NCBI GenBank assembly: GCA_965207065.1
Contig: OZ242260.1
Location: 800,001 to 864,000, forward strand
From: a bacterium
Lineage (GTDB): Bacteria > UBA8248
Length of the DNA: 64,000 bases
Direction: 5' to 3'
Every line of letters starts with the position of its first letter. Positions within the stretch are counted from its first letter, which is position 1. The notes under the pieces are model-generated. The model was given only the letters and a program-made list of their open reading frames with translations, did no database searches and was not told the DNA's origin. Of the stretch, positions 1,893-56,650 are shown in pieces. The position numbers and the translations under genes are program-made.

Positions 1893-3443
1893 TCATTTTT
1901 TCTCGAGCTTCGTCAGTTTACCGAGCGCGGCCTTTTGCGGGACCTCCGCCGCGTTCACCATCTTCACGACCTTCTTCACGCTCGCCTCCATCCTTCCGAG
2001 GAACGGCTTGGGATACAGGCCGATCCAGAACATCAGGATGACCAGCGGCAGAAGGTAGAGAACCTCGCGCGCGTTGCAGTCGGTGAGCTTCTCGTTCTCC
2101 GGATTATCCAGCGTACCGAAGAATACCCGCTGGAATAGCCAGAGCATGTAGGCCGCCCCCAGGACGATGCCGATGACGGCGAACGCCGCGTACACGTAGC
2201 TCTTCTTGAACGCGCCGATCAGGATCAAGAACTCGCCCACGAACCCGTTGAGCCCCGGCAGACCGATGCTGCTCAGCATCGTGATGGCGAAAAGCACCGT
2301 AAAGACCGGCACGACCTTCGAGAGGCCGCCATAATCGGAGATGAGGCGCGTATGACGCCTCTCGTAAACGACGCCCACCAGAAGGAACAAGGCGCCCGTG
2401 CTGATCCCGTGGTTGATCATCTGTAGCTGCCCGCCGAGCACGCCCTGTTCGTTCAAGGCGAACACGCCCAGCATCACGAAGCCCAGGTGGCTCACGGAGG
2501 AATAGGCCACCAGTTTCTTGATGTCGGTCTGCGCCATGGCCACCAGCGCCCCGTAGATGATGCCGATGATGGAGAGAAGCATCATGAAGGGCACGAAAAC
2601 ATGGCTCGCCTGGGGGAGTAGCGGCAGGGCGAAGCGCACGAAACCGTAGGTTCCCATTTTCAGGAGGATGCCCGCCAGAATCACGCTGCCCGCAGTGGGC
2701 GCTTCCACGTGCGCGTCCGGCAGCCAGGTGTGGAAGGGGAACATGGGGACCTTGATGGCGAATCCGATGAAGAACGCCAGGAATATCCATATCTGGAGCG
2801 AAAGCGGTATCTTCGGCCCCACGCCGTACAACTCGACCAGGTCGAACGTGAGGGTTCCGGTGCCCATTTTCAAGTTGGCGAAGTAGAACGCCAGAATTCC
2901 CAGCAGCATCAACACGCTGCCGAACAGCGTATAGAGGAAGAACTTGATCGCCGCGTAGAGCTTCCTCGGCCCGCCCCACACGCCGATGAGGAAATACATC
3001 GGCACCAGGGTAATCTCGAAGAACACGTAGAAGAGGAAGATATCAAGCGCGATGAAGGTGCCCAGCATGCCGGTCGCCAGCAAAAGGAGGCAGACGTAGT
3101 ATTCTTTCTCGCGCTCCTCGATGGCGGTGAACGAGCATACGACCCCTATGATCATCGTGAGCGTGGTGAGAAGAACGAGCAGCACGCTGATCCCGTCGAT
3201 GCCGACGAAATAGCTCACCCCGATGGTGGGTATCCAGCTCACCTTCTCCACGAACTGAAAGCCGGCTTCGGACTGATCGAACCTGAACCAGAGGGGAAGC
3301 GAAATCAGGAAGTCCAAGACCGCCACCGCCGTGGCGAAACCCTTGATGGCTTTCGTCTGCTCTTTTTTCATGAAGAGCATGATAATCACCGCGCCCGCCG
3401 CGGGCAGGAAGGTGATCATCGTAAGAAGCGGCATGTTACTCAT
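1893..3443 (-). CDS. nuoM: NADH-quinone oxidoreductase subunit M (reduced operon)
   Basis: GIDGIS, FYVFFE, AIKVPMFPFHTWLPDAHVEAPTAGSVILAG and KKLVAYSSVSH motifs. Confidence 0.97.
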   Translation of the reverse strand: MSNMPLLTMITFLPAAGAVIIMLFMKKEQTKAIKGFATAVAVLDFLISLPLWFRFDQSEAGFQFVEKVSWIPTIGVSYFVGIDGISVLLVLLTTLTMIIGVVCSFTAIEEREKEYYVCLLLLATGMLGTFIALDIFLFYVFFEITLVPMYFLIGVWGGPRKLYAAIKFFLYTLFGSVLMLLGILAFYFANLKMGTGTLTFDLVELYGVGPKIPLSLQIWIFLAFFIGFAIKVPMFPFHTWLPDAHVEAPTAGSVILAGILLKMGTYGFVRFALPLLPQASHVFVPFMMLLSIIGIIYGALVAMAQTDIKKLVAYSSVSHLGFVMLGVFALNEQGVLGGQLQMINHGISTGALFLLVGVVYERRHTRLISDYGGLSKVVPVFTVLFAITMLSSIGLPGLNGFVGEFLILIGAFKKSYVYAAFAVIGIVLGAAYMLWLFQRVFFGTLDNPENEKLTDCNAREVLYLLPLVILMFWIGLYPKPFLGRMEASVKKVVKMVNAAEVPQKAALGKLTKLEKK

Positions 3444-3466
3444 AGTTCCTCCAAAACCTCATCGCA

Positions 3467-5488
3467 TCAGCGGAAAAGGTACGCGCTCAGCATCACGAAG
3501 ATGCCCAACAGCATCACGAAAAGATAATTCTGAACCATGCCGGATTGCAGGTATTTGAATACCTGGGAGAAGAAGCGGATGAAGCTCGCCGTGCCGTTCA
3601 CCGCGCCGTCCACCGTCCGCAGGTCGAAAATGCCCGAGAAGCGGCTCGACACCATAGTGATGAGCGAACTGCCGTTCACCGCCCCGTCCACCACCTTCGC
3701 ATCGAAGGTCCACAGGCCGCGCATGAGCTTGTAGGTCGGCTCGACGATGCAGGCCTGGTAAATCTCGTCAACATAGTATTTGCCGAGGAGCAGGTAATAG
3801 ATGCCCGGTATGCTCCTGTACAGGCGCCTCGGCGCTCCGGTGTCCTTGACGTACATGTACCACGCCAGGGCGATGCCGCCCACGGCGACTGCGATGGCCA
3901 GGATGATCAGAAGCACCACCGCCGGGCCGCTGTGCCCGCCGCCGGCCGCGGCGTTCATCAGGTGCACGCCCTGGTCCATGGCGTGGCCGCCCGCCGGCAT
4001 CTTCGCCAGCGAGGGCGCGAGGAAGCGGTGTATCCAGCCGCCCTCGGGCGGGAAGCCGGGAATCACGCCGCCGATGACGCTCAGGACCGCCAGGATGATG
4101 AGCGGAACCGTCATCGTGGGGGGTGATTCGTGAATATGCTCGCGGGCGTGATGGTCGACGCGCATCTCGCCGTGAAACGTCATGAAGATGAGCCGGAACA
4201 TGTAGAAGGCCGTCATGAAGGCCGCGACGGTGCCCATGATCCAGACCGTGTAGTGTCCCGTGAAGAAGGCGTTCGCCAGAATCTCGTCCTTGCTCCAGAA
4301 GCCCGCCAGAGGCGGAACGCCCGCGATGGCGATCGCGCCGATCAGGAACGTCCAGTACGTGATGGGCATCTTGTCCTTCAAGCCGCCCATGTAGCGCATG
4401 TCCTGCTGCTGTTCCTCGGGCGCATGGTGAAGCGCGTGGATCACGCTGCCGCTGCCCAGAAAGAGCAGGCCCTTGAAGAAGGCGTGCGTCATCAGGTGGA
4501 AGATGGCGGCCGTGAAGGCGCCCACGCCCAGCGCCATGAACATGAAGCCGAGCTGGCTTACCGTGCTGTAGGCGAGCACGCGTTTGATGTCGTTCTGCAC
4601 CAGGCCGATGCTCGCGGCGAAAAGCCCCGTGAGCGCGCCGACGACGGCGATGACGCTCATCGCGTCCGGCCCCATGACGTAGATGGGGCTCGTGCGCGCG
4701 ACCATGTAGACGCCCGCCGTCACCATGGTGGCGGCGTGGATGAGGGCGCTGACGGGGGTCGGGCCTTCCATGGCGTCGGGCAGCCAGACGTAGAGCGGAA
4801 TCTGCGCGCTCTTGCCGACGGCGCCGACGAACAGCAGAAGGCCGACGGCCGACGCCATCGCCGCGCTCATCTCGGGAGCCGCCTGGAAGACTTCCGTGTA
4901 GGTGAGGCTGCCGGTCAGCGTCCAGATGAGGAACATGCCGAGCAGGAAGCCCGCGTCGCCGATTCGGTTGACGATGAACGCCTTCTTGCCGGCGTCTGAT
5001 GCGGATTGCTTCTCGTACCAGAAGCCGATGAGCAGATAGCTGCAAAGGCCCACGCCCTCCCAGCCGACGAACATGACGAGATAGTTGTCCCCCAGCACCA
5101 GCAGGAACATCGAGAGCATGAACAGGTTGAGATAGGTGAAAAAGCGCGGATAGCCCGGGTCGCCGTGCATGTAGCCCACGGCGTAGACGTGCACCAGAAA
5201 GCCCACGCCCGACACCACGAGCAGCATGATGGTGCTCAGCGGGTCGATGAGGAAGCTCATGGAAACGCTCAGGCTTCCCGCTTCCACCCACGTCCAGAGC
5301 GGTATGGTGTGGCTGCCGCCCGCGCCGAATATCATCTGCCCGGCGATGCCCAGCACAACGAGAAACGACAGCCCCGCCATGCCGGAGGCGATGGGGCCCG
5401 CATTCTCGCCCACGTGCTTTCCGAACAATCCGTTGATCAGGACCCCGATCACCGGAAAAACGGGAATGAGCCAAGCCAGTTCGATCAT
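3467..5488 (-). CDS. nuoL: NADH-quinone oxidoreductase subunit L (reduced operon)
   Basis: GWEGVGLCSYLLIGFW, GKSAQIPLYVWLPDAMEGPTPVSALIHAATMV and a C-terminal transverse-helix region. Confidence 0.97.
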   Translation of the reverse strand: MIELAWLIPVFPVIGVLINGLFGKHVGENAGPIASGMAGLSFLVVLGIAGQMIFGAGGSHTIPLWTWVEAGSLSVSMSFLIDPLSTIMLLVVSGVGFLVHVYAVGYMHGDPGYPRFFTYLNLFMLSMFLLVLGDNYLVMFVGWEGVGLCSYLLIGFWYEKQSASDAGKKAFIVNRIGDAGFLLGMFLIWTLTGSLTYTEVFQAAPEMSAAMASAVGLLLFVGAVGKSAQIPLYVWLPDAMEGPTPVSALIHAATMVTAGVYMVARTSPIYVMGPDAMSVIAVVGALTGLFAASIGLVQNDIKRVLAYSTVSQLGFMFMALGVGAFTAAIFHLMTHAFFKGLLFLGSGSVIHALHHAPEEQQQDMRYMGGLKDKMPITYWTFLIGAIAIAGVPPLAGFWSKDEILANAFFTGHYTVWIMGTVAAFMTAFYMFRLIFMTFHGEMRVDHHAREHIHESPPTMTVPLIILAVLSVIGGVIPGFPPEGGWIHRFLAPSLAKMPAGGHAMDQGVHLMNAAAGGGHSGPAVVLLIILAIAVAVGGIALAWYMYVKDTGAPRRLYRSIPGIYYLLLGKYYVDEIYQACIVEPTYKLMRGLWTFDAKVVDGAVNGSSLITMVSSRFSGIFDLRTVDGAVNGTASFIRFFSQVFKYLQSGMVQNYLFVMLLGIFVMLSAYLFR

Positions 5489-5495
5489 GATTCCC

Positions 5496-5798
5496 CTACC
5501 ACTTCAAAAGGTTGATTTCGTCCACGTTGACCATCGTGCGGTCGCGGTTGAGCGCAATGAGTATCGCAAGTCCCACGGCCGCCTCGCACGCCGCCACGGT
5601 GATGACGAAGATGGCGAACACCTGGCCCGTCATATCCGCCAGGTGGCGCGAGAAGCCCACGAAGGTCACGTTCACGGCGTTGAGCATCAACTCGATGGAC
5701 AACAGGATGATGATGGCGTTGCGGCGCATCAGAACGCCCATCGCGCCGATGAGGAACAGGACGGCGCCCAGGACGAGAAAATGAGTCATCGGTATCAT
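5496..5798 (-). CDS. nuoK: NADH-quinone oxidoreductase subunit K (reduced operon)
   Basis: 100 aa, 3 TM; RRNAI, IELMLNA and [10 protein letters not shown]. Confidence 0.96.
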
Positions 5799-6345: not shown

Positions 6346-7317
6346 TTACAAGAACAGGTACTTCAGGAATCCGGTCAGGAAAATGTTGAGCATCACGAGC
6401 GGGAACATGAACTTCCATCCCACGCGCATCAGCTGATCGTAACGGTAGCGCGGCAGCGTCGCCCGCAGCCATATGAACACGAACATCAAGGCGCCCAGTT
6501 TGAGGCAGTACCAGACGAAGCCGGGGAGCGGAATGAAATCCGGCCCATCCCATCCGCCGAAAAACAGCACGATGCCAATCGTCGATATGACCATCATGCT
6601 GGCGTACTCCGCCAGGAAGAAGAACGCGAACTTCATCCCGCTGTATTCGGTGTGAAAGCCGGCCACGAGTTCGGTTTCCGCCTCGGGCAGGTCGAAGGGC
6701 ACCCGGTTCGTCTCCGCAAGCGCCGCGATAAAGAAGACGATAAAGGCCAACGGCTGATAGAACACGAACCATACGTCGCGCTGCGCGTGTACGATCTCCT
6801 GCAGGTTCAGGGAACCGGCGAGCATCAGCGGCCCGATGACGGAGAAGCCCAGGAATATCTCGTAGCTCAGCATCTGCGCCGCGCTCCTGAGCGCGCCCAG
6901 AAGCGAGTATTTGCTGTTCGAGGCCCAGCCCGCCATCACCACGCCGAACACGCCGAGTGAGCTGATCGCCAGAACGAAAAACAGCCCGATGTTGATTTGC
7001 GTGATATAGAACGTCGCGCTGAAGGGCAGCACCGCATAGACGACCAGTGCGGGCACCAGCACCATCACGGGGGCCAGGACGAAAACAACGCGGTCCGCCT
7101 TGTCGGGGATGATGTCTTCTTTGAAAAACAGCTTGAGCCCGTCCGCTATCGGCTGAAGGAGCCCGTGCCAGCCCACGCGCATCGGCCCCAGGCGCAACTG
7201 TGCGTGGGCGATCACTTTTCGCTCGACGTAGATCATATACGCCACCACGAGTTGCACCACGTTGACCACGATGAATATCTTTATCGCGGCGACCGCGACT
7301 TCTAGCGCCATGTCCAA
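6346..7317 (-). CDS. nuoH: NADH-quinone oxidoreductase subunit H (reduced operon)
   Basis: [25 protein letters not shown] and [26 protein letters not shown]. Confidence 0.97.
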
Positions 7318-7329
7318 CGAAACGACTCC

Positions 7330-8472
7330 TTACCGATCACACTCGCCCAACACGATGTCGATGCTTCCGATGATGGCCACCACGTCCGCGACCAACTGCC
7401 CGATGCACAGCTTCTTGAGCCCCCCCAGGTTGATGAACGAGGGCGGGCGGATGCGGACGCGATAGGGCGTCGTCGTCCCATCGCTCACGATGTAGAAGCC
7501 GAACTCGCCCTTGGGGTTTTCGATGCTGTGGTATATCTCGCCCTCCGGGGGCTTGATGGTTCGCGGCGTCTTGCAGGTCACCGGCCCGCCGGGAAGCTGG
7601 TCCAGGCACTGCTGGATGATGCGGGTGCTCTGGCGCAACTCCTCGATGCGCACCAGATAGCGGTCGTATATGTCGCCGTTCTCGCCGACGGGAACGACGA
7701 AATCGAGATAGGGATACGCCGCGTATGGCTTGGCGCGCCTTAAGTCCCAACGCACGCCGCTGCCCCGGATGATCGGGCCCGTCAATCCTAAGTCCATCGC
7801 ATCCTCGGCGGAGATGATGCCCACGTCGCGCGTCCTCTGCAGCCAGATGCGGTTGTTCGTGAGCAGCGTCTCGTAATCATCGATCCGGCTCGGGAAAATA
7901 TCGATGAACTCCTGCGTGAGTTGCAGGAACTTGTCCGGCACGTCCTCGTGCAGACCGCCCAGGCGGAAGGCGTTCACCGTCAGTCGGCCGCCGAACGCCG
8001 TCTCGAAGAGATCGAGCACCATCTCGCGCTCTCGGAAGCACCACAGGAACACCGTCATCGCCCCGATGTCGAGAGCGTGCGTGGCGAGCCAGAGCAGGTG
8101 GCTGGCGATGCGGGAGAGCTCCCCCACCATCGAGCGGATGTACTGCGCCCGCATGGGGATCTCCCAGTCGAAGAATTTCTCCACCGCCGTGACCCACGCG
8201 AGATTGTTCGAGGGCGCCGCGATGTAGTCGAGGCGGTCCGTATAGGGGATGAACATCGTGTAGGTGATGTTCTCGCCGATCTTCTCCGTGCCGCGGTGCA
8301 GGTAGCCGATGTCGCAGTCGAGGTCGTTCACCGTCTCGCCGTCGAGTTTCAGGATCACCCGGAGCACCCCGTGCGTGCTCGGGTGCTGGGGACCCATGTT
8401 GATGACGAGTTCTTCGGTCCCGTGCAGGGTGCTCTGCTGCTCGATACGAGACGTGTTCGCTACGCCGACCAT
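7330..8472 (-). CDS. nuoD: NADH-quinone oxidoreductase subunit D, short form (reduced operon)
   Basis: NMGPQHPSTHGVLR, GYLHRG, DRLDY and C-terminal IDIVLGECDR; no NiFe CxxC pairs. Confidence 0.96.
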   Translation of the reverse strand: MVGVANTSRIEQQSTLHGTEELVINMGPQHPSTHGVLRVILKLDGETVNDLDCDIGYLHRGTEKIGENITYTMFIPYTDRLDYIAAPSNNLAWVTAVEKFFDWEIPMRAQYIRSMVGELSRIASHLLWLATHALDIGAMTVFLWCFREREMVLDLFETAFGGRLTVNAFRLGGLHEDVPDKFLQLTQEFIDIFPSRIDDYETLLTNNRIWLQRTRDVGIISAEDAMDLGLTGPIIRGSGVRWDLRRAKPYAAYPYLDFVVPVGENGDIYDRYLVRIEELRQSTRIIQQCLDQLPGGPVTCKTPRTIKPPEGEIYHSIENPKGEFGFYIVSDGTTTPYRVRIRPPSFINLGGLKKLCIGQLVADVVAIIGSIDIVLGECDR

Positions 8473-52260: not shown

Positions 52261-53307
52261 ATGGACAATCAACCCCAAATCCTCACGTGGAAGAGAATAT
52301 GGCTTATTCTCATATTCATCGCCGGCATCTGGCTTCTGGTGAGCGCCCGCGCGGCGCTGGTGCCCCTCGCGGCTTCCTTCATCCTCGCCTATCTGCTCCA
52401 GCCCCTGGTCGATAAGCTGGAGAGATGGAAAATACCGAGGCCCCTCGCCGTCCTGATCCCCCTGCTGGGTTTGGGCTTGGTTCTTTTGATCTTGTGGGCG
52501 AGCATCGCGCCCGTGGTGCGAGAGCAAGTGACGGCGTTCGCCAAGAAGCTTCCCGACTACATCAAGCTCACACAATCCTGGCTCATCGCCACGCTCGATA
52601 AATTCGACCTCCCCCAGACGGCCGAACTCCAGAAATACTTCACCGAAAACCTCTCCTTGCTGAGCCAGTTTCCCGTTACCGCGCTCAGGTTCCTGCTGAG
52701 AACGACCAGCGGCATTTTTTCCATCGCCATCGGCATGATCTATCTCATCCTCATCCCCGTGATGACCTTCTATGTCCTGAGGGACTGGAAAGAGCTATGG
52801 AAGGGGTTTTTCGCCTACGTGCACCGCGACTACCGCGCTGAGGTGGAGAAAAGGGTCTTCCGGCTCGACGAACTGCTCGGTTCGTTCATCAAGGGGCAGT
52901 TGCTGATCGCCTTCATCCTCTCCGCAGTGTACGTGCTGGGCTTCTTCATCGTGGACATGCCGCTGTGGCTGGTGATGGGCATTTTTACGGGTATCGCCTG
53001 CATGTTTCCCTACGTGGAATGGATTATCGCCCTGCCGATCGCCCTGCTGCTCTCCGCACTCGGCCATCAGGACTGGCTCCACCCGCTGGCAACGCTGGCC
53101 GTGTTCGGGATCATCTCGCCCATAGCGGGCATGACCCTCGTTCCCCGCATCCTGGGCAACCGCATCGGACTTCACCCCGTGGTGGTGCTCGCATCCATCA
53201 TGATAGGGGGGGAGTTGATGGGATTCGCGGGAATCCTCCTCGCCGTCCCGCTCGCGGCGGCCATCAAGGTGGCTCTCGAGGCCATTTCAGACTACTACCT
53301 GATGTAA
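52261..53307 (+). CDS. AI-2E (PerM) family transporter
   Basis: ILAYLLQPLV, FIKGQL and PRILG..IGLHPVVV..GGELMGFAGILLAVP. Confidence 0.9.
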   Translation: MDNQPQILTWKRIWLILIFIAGIWLLVSARAALVPLAASFILAYLLQPLVDKLERWKIPRPLAVLIPLLGLGLVLLILWASIAPVVREQVTAFAKKLPDYIKLTQSWLIATLDKFDLPQTAELQKYFTENLSLLSQFPVTALRFLLRTTSGIFSIAIGMIYLILIPVMTFYVLRDWKELWKGFFAYVHRDYRAEVEKRVFRLDELLGSFIKGQLLIAFILSAVYVLGFFIVDMPLWLVMGIFTGIACMFPYVEWIIALPIALLLSALGHQDWLHPLATLAVFGIISPIAGMTLVPRILGNRIGLHPVVVLASIMIGGELMGFAGILLAVPLAAAIKVALEAISDYYLM

Positions 53308-53425
53308 GTTTTCCTGGACGTTCCTCGCGGTTGGCGTGAACCACCGCTCAGTGGGTTGTTGAAAAAGCCCTTGAGTGGGAAAAGGAAACCCCCTTAAAAG
53401 GGAAACCCCATAAAGGCACCCCCCC

Positions 53426-53583
53426 CTACTCGGGTACTTCCACCCCCCGGTCCACGGCGCGGGCCATGAGGAAGAGGAGGTCGGAGACGCGGTTCAGGTA
53501 GACGAGCAGGTCGGGGTTGTCGATGTAGCCCTCATCCCGCAGCTTGACCGACCATCTCTCCCCCCGGCGGATGATGGTGAGCG
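53426..53583 (-). pseudogene. Displaced duplicate 3' fragment of pduO (last ~51 codons)
   Basis: LTIIRRGERWSVKLRDEGYIDNPDLLVYLNRVSDLLFLMARAVDRGVEVPE*; no 5' part. Confidence 0.9.
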
Positions 53584-53603
53584 AAATCGTCAGCCACCCA
53601 CGC

Positions 53604-54257
53604 CTAAACCTGAATCTTTCCCTCGATGAAAGCTCTGGCGCATTCGTAGTGCCAGTTTGTTTTGGTCTTCGTGTGAAACCGCCGCAGCGTGTAGCCAGGC
53701 GCTTTCGGCGCGCTTTTCGAGTTGCACCAGATATACCGGGTTCCATTGACGCCTTCGGTCAATGCGCAAAACAAGCCCACGTAATCCTTACCGCCGAAGA
53801 AAACGACATCATCCCCGGTTTCATCAGGCAGCATATTGAAATCTTCATACTGGTCTTTCTTTCGTCTGCGTTTGTACGCATCAGCGCGTGGGCTGAAGGT
53901 AATGTCATAAACAGGCGTCAGGAAATCTGAGCGGATCAAACCCCACCCCGCAGAGAGGATATAGAAACGCTCCAAACCGCAATGTTCCTTCAGGAGCCGA
54001 TAGACCGGATTTTCGTAGAGTTGCCAGGCAGGAAGAAGTCCGTGCGGGTTGCCGCGAAGTTCGGTATTGTATTCCAAAAGCATGGCTCGCCACGACACTC
54101 CTGTTTTGGAATCATCATCCGGTCGCGCGTAGGCTTGGCTCAAACCACCGGGCGCTGCGCCGGGATCGGCGACGAACAATACCTTTCGTTCATCTCGCGT
54201 GCGCAGATGGCCGGCTTCGGGATTCTTTCTTGCGGCGCATTGTATGACGAGGATCAA
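53604..54257 (-). CDS. YaaA-like / DUF6884-like hypothetical protein
   Basis: LVIQCAARK ... PAWQLY ... FYILSAGWGLI ... YD pattern resembles the YaaA/DUF6884 fold. Confidence 0.6.
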   Translation of the reverse strand: MILVIQCAARKNPEAGHLRTRDERKVLFVADPGAAPGGLSQAYARPDDDSKTGVSWRAMLLEYNTELRGNPHGLLPAWQLYENPVYRLLKEHCGLERFYILSAGWGLIRSDFLTPVYDITFSPRADAYKRRRKKDQYEDFNMLPDETGDDVVFFGGKDYVGLFCALTEGVNGTRYIWCNSKSAPKAPGYTLRRFHTKTKTNWHYECARAFIEGKIQV

Positions 54258-54976
54258 GCGGGAATTTCCATCTCATCGATCAAGCGCGGCAGTTCGTCGA
54301 GAAAGGCCGGGTCGTAGTCTTCATTGACGTGGTTCGAGTTCCAGAGTCCTGAGCTCCGGACTTTTTCCCTGTCACTATTACAACCAAGCCACGAAGAAGG
54401 CGGATCGATGGGATGCTTGCCCCAGTTGCTCAAGAGGGCAATCGCGTTCCTCTCGATGTATCCACGCTTACTTTCAGGACCCGCTTCGTCCTCGATGGCG
54501 AGCCAGAGAAAGGGCATGTCGCCGATATGCCTGCTGACGGTTCTTTCCAGGCACAGTTCGCTCGTTCTGACTTCTCGCGACGCCGTGTCCCCCATTCCCC
54601 AACAGGGATAGTCCAGACTGTCTTTTTTTATCAGGGCCGCTCCCACAATTTTCCTGAAGATCGACCCCCGGTGATTGCCGCCGCTTGTGCGCGTTATTCC
54701 TTTATGTTGTTTCAGACGCGTCCAGAGTTTGGTTTTGCTCCCGGCTTTCAGGGCGTGCGTACCCACCCGCACAATGCGCGAACCTTTCCCGGTATCGGCG
54801 CGGACTTCGCCTTCCTCCTTGAAAAAATAAACTCCGCGCTTGGGCCACCTCATTTTGCCCGAACAATCGGACAATCGGCGCGCTCCGCCGAGACGCTCCT
54901 CAAGCATTGCTAGAAGATCATAAAACCGCTTCAAATCGTCGAGGCGTGATGATGAAGACGGCTGGCTTGTCGGCAT
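54254..54976 (-). CDS. GIY-YIG-like nuclease hypothetical protein
   Basis: PKRGVYFF ... IVRVGT ... LWTRLKQH ... IERNAI ... WN follows the GIY/YIG/R/E/N motif order. Confidence 0.55.
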   Translation of the reverse strand: MPTSQPSSSSRLDDLKRFYDLLAMLEERLGGARRLSDCSGKMRWPKRGVYFFKEEGEVRADTGKGSRIVRVGTHALKAGSKTKLWTRLKQHKGITRTSGGNHRGSIFRKIVGAALIKKDSLDYPCWGMGDTASREVRTSELCLERTVSRHIGDMPFLWLAIEDEAGPESKRGYIERNAIALLSNWGKHPIDPPSSWLGCNSDREKVRSSGLWNSNHVNEDYDPAFLDELPRLIDEMEIPA

Positions 54977-55046
54977 GAATTATCCTAAGAAAACATTTCG
55001 ATGCGCCGGGGCACGGCGTAGATCGTTTCGCGTTTTTCGAATTGAA

Positions 55047-55571
55047 TCAGGCGGGTACTTCCACCCCCCGGTCCACGGCGCGGGCCATGAGGAAGAGCAG
55101 GTCCGAGACGCGGTTCAGGTAGATGAGCAGGTCGGGGTTGTCGATGTAGCCCTCATCCCGCAGTTTGACCGACCATCTCTCGCCCCGGCGGATGATGGTG
55201 AGCGCCATGTCCAGCGCGGCGCCGCAGGGCGAATCGCCCGAGATCACCCAGTCGGTGATTTGAATCTCTTTCTCGTAGCGCGCCACCTGCGCGTCGGCCC
55301 ACGCGACCTGCTCCGCGCCCACGCGCTCTTTGAGCCTGCCGAGTTTGCCCCGCAGCGTCGCCAGGTCGCTGCTCACGAGGTAGAGGTCTTTCTGAATTTT
55401 GAGGATTTCGGGCTTCAGCCATTCGGGGGCCGTCGAGCGGGCGAGGCCGAGCGCGGCTTTCGCCTCATCGAGCGCGCCGTAGGCCTGCACTTGGGGATGA
55501 TACTTGGGAACCCTGTCCGCGAACCATAAATCGGTGTTCCCATCGTCTCCCCTTCTCGTGACGATGGACAT
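55047..55571 (-). CDS. pduO: Cob(I)alamin adenosyltransferase, PduO type
   Basis: TRRGDDGNT, RVPK...AYGALDE, RRGER and YLNRVSDLLF. Confidence 0.93.
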   Translation of the reverse strand: MSIVTRRGDDGNTDLWFADRVPKYHPQVQAYGALDEAKAALGLARSTAPEWLKPEILKIQKDLYLVSSDLATLRGKLGRLKERVGAEQVAWADAQVARYEKEIQITDWVISGDSPCGAALDMALTIIRRGERWSVKLRDEGYIDNPDLLIYLNRVSDLLFLMARAVDRGVEVPA

Positions 55572-55588
55572 CGGCTCACTCCTTCAGG

Positions 55589-56650
55589 CTAGAGTCTCTT
55601 GATGACGTCGGTGGCGACGGAGCGCGTCGTCCCTGTGCCCCCTAAGTCCGCCGTGCGGTTGCCACCGGCCAGATGCGCGCGAACCGCGCCGTCGAGCCGC
55701 TTCGCCGCGCGCTCCTCGCCCAGATAATCGACCATCAAGGCGGCGGAAATAAGCGCGGCCACCGGGTTGGCGATCCCCTTGCCCATGATGTCGGGTGCGG
55801 AGCCGTGCACGGGCTCGAACAGGCCGGGCGCATCTCCCTTGGGATTCGTGTTGGCGCTCGCGGCGACTCCCAGCCCGCCGACGATGGCGGCGCCCAGGTC
55901 CGTCAGGATGTCGCCGAAGAGGTTCGTGGACACCACAACGTCGAAATGCTCGGGCCTTCTCACGAACTCCAAGGCGGCGGCGTCTACGAGATATTTCGCC
56001 GTCTCGATTTTCTTGTAGCGGGGCCTTGCGGCGACTTCCTCAAAAATCTCATCCCACATCACCAGCGTATGGCCCTGCGCGTTCGATTTCGTGATGTTGG
56101 TCACGTGCTTTTTCCGCTTGAGCGCCGCCTCGAACGCCGCCTCGATAATGCGCTCACAGCCCATGCGCGTGAAGAGCGTGATCTGGGCGGCCAGCTCTCC
56201 CGGGTGTCCCTCGTAGTGTCTGCCGCCGATGGGGCTGTATTCCCCCTCGGTATTCTCGCGGAAGAAGAGCATGTCGATGTCGCCCGGCTCGTAACCGCGC
56301 AGCGGCGATTCCAGCCCCTCGTACAGGACGATGGGCCGCATGTTGACGTAAAGGTCGAAACCCCTGCGCAGCGGAAGCAGAAGCTGGTTGAGGGTGATGT
56401 GATCGGGGATGTCGGGCCGGCCCACCGCGCCGAGCAGAATCGCGTCGTGCTTTCTCACGCGGTCCAGAAAATTCTCCGGGCACATACGGCCCGTCTCGTG
56501 ATAGAAATCGCTCCCCCAGGGGTATTTCGTGAAAGAAAACTCAAGGCCGCGCTCGCTCTTCGCCAGCGCCCTTAAAACGCGCACAGCCTGTGTGATGACT
56601 TCGGGCCCGATGCCGTCCGCGGGAATTAAACCGATGCTGTGCTTCGCCAT
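55589..56650 (-). CDS. Tartrate/isopropylmalate dehydrogenase family (beta-decarboxylating dehydrogenase)
   Basis: DGIGPEV, RENTEGEY, NLFGDILTD and FEPVHGSAPDI.GKGIANP. Confidence 0.9.
   Translation of the reverse strand: MAKHSIGLIPADGIGPEVITQAVRVLRALAKSERGLEFSFTKYPWGSDFYHETGRMCPENFLDRVRKHDAILLGAVGRPDIPDHITLNQLLLPLRRGFDLYVNMRPIVLYEGLESPLRGYEPGDIDMLFFRENTEGEYSPIGGRHYEGHPGELAAQITLFTRMGCERIIEAAFEAALKRKKHVTNITKSNAQGHTLVMWDEIFEEVAARPRYKKIETAKYLVDAAALEFVRRPEHFDVVVSTNLFGDILTDLGAAIVGGLGVAASANTNPKGDAPGLFEPVHGSAPDIMGKGIANPVAALISAALMVDYLGEERAAKRLDGAVRAHLAGGNRTADLGGTGTTRSVATDVIKRL

Follow-up and report, generated by a model that had tools for sequence, protein, structure and literature searches.

What are two small, overlapping genes of atypical composition doing alone between housekeeping genes? 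The question is raised by a 1.45-kb islet in a bacterium of the UBA8248 lineage (GenBank assembly GCA_965207065.1, contig OZ242260.1). The window analysed here is the 64,000-nt stretch at positions 800,001 to 864,000 of that contig, and coordinates of the islet and its flanks are counted from its first letter. A preliminary description, made from the sequence alone, had proposed a two-gene defence or DNA-processing system consisting of a GIY-YIG-like nuclease (gene B) and a YaaA/DUF6884-like protein (gene A). We find that both proteins belong to these fold classes, that A and B are linked and frequently fused, and that together they form an accessory, exchanged cassette. As to function, our best explanation is that the pair is a unit of reader and nuclease for modified or damaged bases, serving as an accessory and probably defensive module, a reading to which we give about even chances.

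The two genes are the following.

54254..54976, minus strand: gene B, 240 amino acids, ATG start, taken from the open reading frame (ORF) list; a GIY_YIG_3-type putative nuclease, PDC-M57B in PADLOC.
53604..54257, minus strand: gene A, 217 amino acids, TTG start; a divergent DUF6884/YaaA-like protein.

An AGGA-type ribosome-binding site lies 6 nt upstream of B's ATG. The plus-strand tcaa at 54254-54257 is TTGA on the coding strand, where A's TTG start shares 4 nt with B's TGA stop, and because of this overlap, which had been noticed before, A and B are predicted to be translationally coupled, probably. The islet (53595-55046) has a GC content of 0.542, compared with 0.618 for the whole window, and no sliding window of 1452 nt has a lower value (a fraction of 0.002 is at or below it). 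GC at third codon positions (GC3) is 0.60 in A and 0.63 in B, against 0.82-0.84 in three flanking genes, so that the host-atypical composition claimed earlier is real. It is also correct that A and B are the only cargo, since nothing else lies between two 164-nt direct repeat copies that bracket the islet.

B is covered end to end by the PADLOC profile PDC-M57B (E 3.2e-83, residues 11-236). PF26468 (PF26468.1), whose Atlas name is GIY_YIG_3, is precomputed for B itself and for 120 of the 120 homologues listed from a large protein collection, and is carried by 100% of the members of the nearest clusters. The AlphaFold 2 (AF2) model of B, with a predicted local distance difference test score (pLDDT) of 81, has strands at residues 48-54, 67-73 and 155-160 and helices at 84-92, 101-118 and 170-182, which is the strand-strand-helix-helix-strand-helix order of the GIY-YIG core, with a helical insert added at about residues 119-153. 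In an exhaustive structural alignment against 48,161 chains, only 21 chains reach Z >= 2. Among these, T4 EndoII ranks 1 (Z 5.0), the UvrC GIY-YIG domain 3 (Z 4.2), PD-T4-3 4 (Z 4.0), I-TevI 5 (Z 3.8), R.Eco29kI 6 (Z 3.7), Hpy188I 9 (Z 2.4) and At-HIGLE 13 (Z 2.3). The chain titles state GIY-YIG only for UvrC and Eco29kI; EndoII, Hpy188I, I-TevI, PD-T4-3 and HIGLE are GIY-YIG enzymes as well. Across 34 sequences of the family, residues G48, Y50, R70, G72, R87, H91, E175 and N177 are invariant or nearly so, and Y50, R70/G72, R87, H91, E175 and N177 are invariant and stand in the order expected of GIY-YIG; the exact assignment of catalytic residues is putative. With the Pfam assignment and the predominance of GIY-YIG nucleases in the structure search, the fold that the preliminary description gave to B holds. 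The canonical GIY-YIG model PF01541 does not match B at E <= 1, and a genome-wide search with it finds three other loci in the same genome and not B. Local Pfam, NCBIfam and PHROGs libraries return nothing for B, and neither protein's profile finds anything below E 0.1 among Protein Data Bank (PDB) sequences.

For A, which has a confident AF2 model (pLDDT 93), E. coli YaaA (5caj) is the top Foldseek match (E 2.8e-4, prob 0.98). The same chain ranks 1 of 48,161 in VIA-align, with Z 6.9 and a root-mean-square deviation of 5.1 over 158 residues, the next entry having Z 5.0. For DUF6884 proteins, two motifs (CxxxK and LSAxxG), a DNA cleft like that of YaaA and a model of base flipping have been described, as has a DNA-binding role for E. 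coli YaaA and B. subtilis YfjM (PMC11701544). A has both motifs, as C7-x3-K11 and L101-S102-A103-G104-W105-G106, and both are invariant in 30 sequences. Many close homologues of A carry a precomputed PF21818.4 (DUF6884) match; A itself has no NCBIfam match and only one at E 0.012 in PHROGs. We regard A as a longer, divergent branch of the DUF6884/YaaA group, which agrees with its earlier assignment, YaaA being on top in both structure searches. The motifs that had been quoted for A and B are all present, and are invariant or nearly so across homologues.

The expectation that homologues of the two genes co-occur is borne out. Among 79 loci, taken as one genome per species, a full A directly follows B in 69, a partial or cut A in 5, and no A in 5. 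The 80 metagenome loci comprise 51 in which A is full, 8 in which it is partial, 8 that lack it and 13 that are cut short by contig ends. Fusion is frequent: 46 longer B homologues, hand-picked from 150 listed and with domain counts that overlap, include 24 with an added DUF6884 domain, in either order relative to B, 3 with YaaA only, 8 with DUF7662, 3 that join a 5'-3' exonuclease, DUF6884 and B, and 14 with no recognised extra domain. Relatives of B number 5,237 at E <= 0.001 in the large protein collection, most at 60-70% identity. There are 330 confirmed matches in 185,579 species genomes, from many phyla, while plasmids (10 of 72,556 records) and viruses (3 confirmed contigs) are both rare carriers. 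Some loci depart from the simple pair. Two of Candidatus Rariloculaceae (L018 1179-1703 and L045 1187-1714) have a second, partial A-like stretch, with 57% identity over residues 1-173, about 3.3 kb upstream of the complete pair. One of Planctomycetales (L056) has two B-type genes close together on one strand (3633-4316 and 5001-5699), and no A homologue was detected in that locus.

Such a pair has been seen before. PADLOC already lists it as the defence candidate PDC-M57, one of a set of 145 untested candidates found by 'guilt-by-embedding' in BREX, DISARM or Type I restriction-modification (RM) systems (Payne et al., bioRxiv 10.1101/2024.01.29.577857). Thus, in the phrase 'uncharacterised pair', 'uncharacterised' stands, and any suggestion that the pair is uncatalogued does not. 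A full-text literature search found no paper with the name 'PDC-M57', and a literature search found none with 'DpdC' and 'YaaA' together.

To see how the cassette behaves in the genome, we considered its flanks.

52261-53307: AI-2E transporter gene, a housekeeping neighbour on one side of the islet.
53345..53430, no strand assigned: one occurrence of a dispersed repeat some 80 nt long, within which the minus strand has a terminator-like hairpin (53404-53389).
53431..53594, minus strand: left copy of the direct repeat, an orphan duplicate of the adenosyltransferase 3' end that begins 10 nt past A's stop.
54977..55046, minus strand: 70-nt spacer between the adenosyltransferase stop and the B start.
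55047..55571, minus strand: intact PduO-type cob(I)alamin adenosyltransferase gene, 174 amino acids (PF01923, E 4.4e-42).
55052-55215, minus strand: right copy of the direct repeat, the last 164 nt of the adenosyltransferase gene.

A CDP-alcohol phosphatidyltransferase gene lies on the same side as the AI-2E transporter, and an isocitrate/isopropylmalate dehydrogenase gene on the adenosyltransferase side. The two copies of the 164-nt repeat are 94% identical. Both the intact 174-aa ORF and a 106-aa orphan ORF (53426-53746), which contains the left copy, match PF01923, the orphan only at profile positions 124-170, and the orphan is probably not a gene. A scan of 53300-55700 found no sigma-70-like promoter, hence none before B, which makes transcription of the cassette together with the adenosyltransferase gene plausible from the sequence. 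Of 162 candidate copies of the dispersed repeat in its own genome, 40 were scored and 32 of these are matches, and congeners have many as well; Rfam gave no match at E <= 1, for this repeat or otherwise. The segment at 53345-53430, now downstream of the cassette, probably once served the adenosyltransferase operon as its terminator region. In three RNA libraries, contigs match the window at 55052-55232 alone (the adenosyltransferase 3' end) and beyond it run into sequence unlike the window; they are uninformative on expression of the cassette, and suggest a related organism in which the region after the adenosyltransferase gene is arranged differently.

Comparison with congeners makes it clear that the site is a variable hotspot. 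The cassette is present here in 7 of 23 genomes of the genus, four of them with the duplicated adenosyltransferase end (G000, G013, G012 and G002) and three without it (G015, G022 and G006). In five congeners the flanking genes are 21-52 bp apart and the site is empty, and in one of the 23 genomes the contig ends at the site. Elsewhere the site is differently occupied, by a 338-aa GmrSD_C protein that also matches PADLOC HEC-06 and Orf5 (G007; L092 1040-2056), or by two DDE transposase genes (G011; L091 1267-2697 and 2870-4219). That one congener has a GmrSD-type restriction gene here accords with the earlier view of the islet as one of the small variable islets that hold defence genes.

The cassette is also exchanged as alleles. 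In comparisons with six congeners, synonymous divergence (dS) is 0.56-0.94 for the cassette and 0.25-0.50 for the flanking genes. A metagenome contig from a near-identical strain (L124, cassette at 3001-4373) has flanks that are 98.1-100% identical to those in the window (dS 0-0.04), with A only 88.1% and B 92.0% identical, no indels, and dS of 0.34 for A and 0.21 for B. The differences cluster in two patches, B codons 101-160 with dS 0.87 and A codons 33-95 with dS 0.54. This mosaic allele indicates that sequence was imported, an allele or patches of it being replaced through recombination, and not that the cassette changed fast where it stands. The copies of the repeat are 94-98% alike within a genome, compared with about 91-93% for orthologous copies between species, and gene conversion or repeated exchange would fit this pattern.

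An element that moves by itself might leave a similar picture, and we considered whether the cassette is selfish, either a homing-type nuclease unit inserting copies of itself at a favoured site, or an addiction module in which B is the toxin and A the antidote. There are homing endonucleases among GIY-YIG enzymes, B matches I-TevI in the structure search, the two genes are small and overlapping, one site in the genus has occupied and empty alleles, and in many phyla the cassette is often alone between housekeeping genes. The duplicated target-gene 3' end is found in the same geometry twice independently, the second case being a Spirochaetia locus (L027), where a direct repeat of about 107 nt (78% identical, 4847-4953 and 6383-6488) abuts both cassette ends. 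That locus also has an outer repeat of about 250 nt (3455-3700 and 7306-7551) and an ORF (3405-5726) that extends from upstream into B. Flanking duplication is nonetheless no general mark of the cassette, as 63 of 67 scored genome loci are within the null expectation and only three congeners and L027 are above it; among the 80 metagenome loci a clear flanking repeat is seen only in L124, with a marginal 32-nt match in L192. None of those 80 loci has the terminal contig overlap of a circular form, the cassette is present in a single copy in its own genome, and insertion sites differ between phyla. Recent invasion predicts the opposite of what is seen in dS, where the cassette exceeds its flanks. 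A, moreover, keeps enzyme-like invariant motifs, and A-B fusions in both orders would be unusual for a toxin and its antidote. We consider a selfish cassette distinctly improbable. As for an integrase-borne island, a flanking repeat of the target-gene 3' end is present with no integrase gene beside it: the islet consists of A and B only and its neighbours are housekeeping genes; the duplication fits both an integrase-type insertion with later loss of the integrase and one-sided homologous plus illegitimate recombination.

We also considered the identities of nearby genes at 74 loci outside the genus, scanning the nearest ORF on each side (143 proteins). Because there was no matched control, any enrichment here is a judgement and not a statistic. 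By our own sorting of Pfam matches, about 23 of the 74 loci have a neighbour of mobile-element, toxin-antitoxin or defence type. PADLOC profiles at E <= 1e-8 match nearest neighbours in 15 loci; matches at two of these (L017 and L063) were set aside, being to a generic ATPase or methyltransferase. A specific defence protein is the immediate neighbour in 13 of the 74, including BrxA, HmaC with PD-Lambda-3_B, Dsr1, AbiEii (twice), SoFic, a Type IIG RM protein, HKD+Snf2, WYL and PDC candidates. In ten Dehalococcoidia genomes (L020, L024, L026, L028, L033, L040, L051, L053, L064 and L080) the cassette is found just downstream of a NIPSNAP-domain gene, in what looks like a second lineage-specific fixed site; B is alone there in L064 and L080, and a fumarylacetoacetate-hydrolase-family gene is the next ORF downstream in L033, L051 and L064.

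Taken together, these are the reasons why we favour defence: the site behaves as a hotspot, it holds a restriction gene in one congener, cassette alleles are swapped, some loci have defence neighbours, and the PADLOC candidate was discovered by its embedding in defence systems. We picture the unit as follows. B and A would be made from one transcript with coupled translation. On binding duplex DNA, A would flip an unusual nucleotide out of the helix, be it a 7-deazaguanine-type modified base or a site that is damaged or abasic. That nucleotide would enter a pocket formed by the invariant Cys-x3-Lys and LSAGWG motifs of A. Recognition by A would then direct or license B to nick or cut the DNA nearby. 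The islet, with its two genes only, has no methyltransferase gene. In the cell, the pair would most likely serve as an accessory, horizontally exchanged defence module in a variable hotspot, of the modification-dependent (Type IV-like) kind of restriction. In this scheme we infer that A and B form a complex, that A flips bases and B is a nuclease, what the target is, and that the role is defensive.

A more specific proposal can be built on the same scheme: a new modification- or lesion-dependent restriction in which the Cys-Lys pocket of a YaaA-fold reader inspects a flipped non-canonical base, 7-deazaguanine-type phage DNA being the leading guess, and licenses a cut by the GIY-YIG protein. 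In this lineage the 164-nt repeats would be homology arms for swapping alleles and the variable patches (B 101-160, A 33-95), which may set specificity. We offer this version tentatively and think it rather unlikely to be right in full.

Several observations weigh against the reading of the pair as a defensive reader and nuclease. A scores 26.1 bits (E 1e-5) against Pfam DUF6884 (PF21818), under the gathering cut-off of 30 bits, and for this reason is filed as DUF6884-like and not as a DUF6884 member. Its PADLOC match to PDC-M57A is weak (E 2.4e-5, 22.7 bits). For B, the structural Z scores are modest (at most 5.0), and Foldseek against the PDB gives nothing significant, with Eco29kI and Hpy188I only at E about 2. 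An hhalign comparison of the B family with 12 canonical GIY-YIG domains (UvrC and small proteins, from the genus and relatives) gives prob 0.5 and E 0.12; the first motif and the Arg helix line up, and the second motif falls on ALKAG, not on VRVG, where the preliminary description had it. In the L124 comparison the ratio of nonsynonymous to synonymous divergence is below 1 throughout (0.07-0.56), and no positive selection is seen by this crude measure. Most loci are not defence islands: about 51 of the 74 have metabolic or transport neighbours, neither mobile-element, toxin-antitoxin nor defence, and 59 of the 74 have no PADLOC match among nearest neighbours. PDC-M57 itself is an untested candidate without known phenotype. 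Finally, the exonuclease fusions, the oxidative-stress link of YaaA and the binding of YfjM to lesions fit DNA repair equally well.

The repair alternative has A recognising a lesion, such as an abasic site, an embedded ribonucleotide or an oxidised base, and B incising in the manner of UvrC, with host enzymes or the fused 5'-3' exonuclease finishing the work. YfjM, a DUF6884 member (PMC11701544), is listed with proteins that are enriched on DNA containing abasic sites or RNA bases (PMC10220248, Table 1), and YaaA has been linked to oxidative stress (PMC11701544). Also in favour of an accessory repair module are the fusions of the exonuclease to DUF6884 and B in 3 of those 46 longer B homologues, the place of the UvrC GIY-YIG domain near the top of B's structural matches, and the many loci that lie among housekeeping genes. 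Such a module accords less well with the patchy distribution of the family, at 330 matches in 185,579 species genomes and 7 of 23 congeners, with the atypical GC3 of the cassette, with the restriction gene or insertion sequence (IS) elements at the same site in other congeners, and with the swapping of cassette alleles between near-identical strains. Defence genes, too, are over-represented among its neighbours, by judgement and with no matched control. On this balance we think repair unlikely to be the explanation, although the selfish or addiction readings, and the compact restriction-modification-like pair considered next, are less likely than either defence or repair.

Such a restriction-modification-like pair would mark and cut, A marking its own DNA as DpdC does and B cutting unmarked DNA. 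The resemblance of A to the DNA-modifying DpdC suggests it: A matches the PADLOC DpdC profile at E 3e-5, and in the A family 30 of 30 sequences match DpdC profiles (best E 1.6e-7) and 26 of 30 match PDC-M57A (best E 1.6e-8), all weakly. DUF6884 is reported to be present in DpdC (PMC12235509), several Type II restriction enzymes are of the GIY-YIG class, and Eco29kI and Hpy188I are among the matches of B. DpdC alone turns preQ0-DNA into ADG-DNA, but the preQ0 on which it acts has already been inserted by DpdA and DpdB (PMC10164549), and the islet has no such genes. A protein of 217 amino acids with no cofactor domain is, moreover, unlikely to be a stand-alone marker, and we judge this scheme very improbable.

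Returning to the pair as reader and nuclease, the discovery itself is modest, as PADLOC catalogues the pair already. What the locus adds is a divergent subfamily of A, evidence of mosaic allele exchange and a clear natural series in which the site is empty, occupied by the cassette or occupied by something else. It should make a good test locus, having an intact cassette, congeners in which the site is empty, occupied or differently occupied, and, in L124, a mosaic allele that points to the likely specificity regions. Should the pair prove to work, it would be a compact two-protein way to tell foreign or damaged DNA from normal DNA, and would give the widespread YaaA/DUF6884 fold its first clear cellular job.

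How the two proteins compare with known systems can be stated for each in turn. B has its fold class, by structure search, in common with the GIY-YIG nucleases of restriction and defence (R.Eco29kI, Hpy188I, T4 EndoII and the 5hmC-specific PD-T4-3), and is unlike them in its long first hairpin, its helical insert (about 119-153), its VRVG where the second YIG motif would stand and its failure to match PF01541. A has the overall fold of E. coli YaaA (DUF328, 5caj) and B. subtilis YfjM (DUF6884); its identity to YaaA is 13%, and whereas YaaA and YfjM stand alone, A is tied to a putative nuclease. With DpdC, of the Dpd system of 7-deazaguanine DNA modification, A shares DUF6884, the A-family matches centring on LSAGWG; the match of A is local (residues 97-134) and weak, no DpdA or DpdB genes are in the islet, and the partner of A is a putative nuclease instead. 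The closest system is PDC-M57 (M57A and M57B), likewise a two-gene unit of DUF6884-type and GIY_YIG_3-type proteins. Its M57B profile covers the window's B end to end, while the window's A, at 217 amino acids, is longer than the 138-position M57A profile and belongs to a divergent subfamily. Some of the sampled loci adjoin BREX, Hma or Type IIG RM genes, which fits how PDC-M57 was found, and the locus in the window is probably a further member of PDC-M57 with a divergent A subunit.

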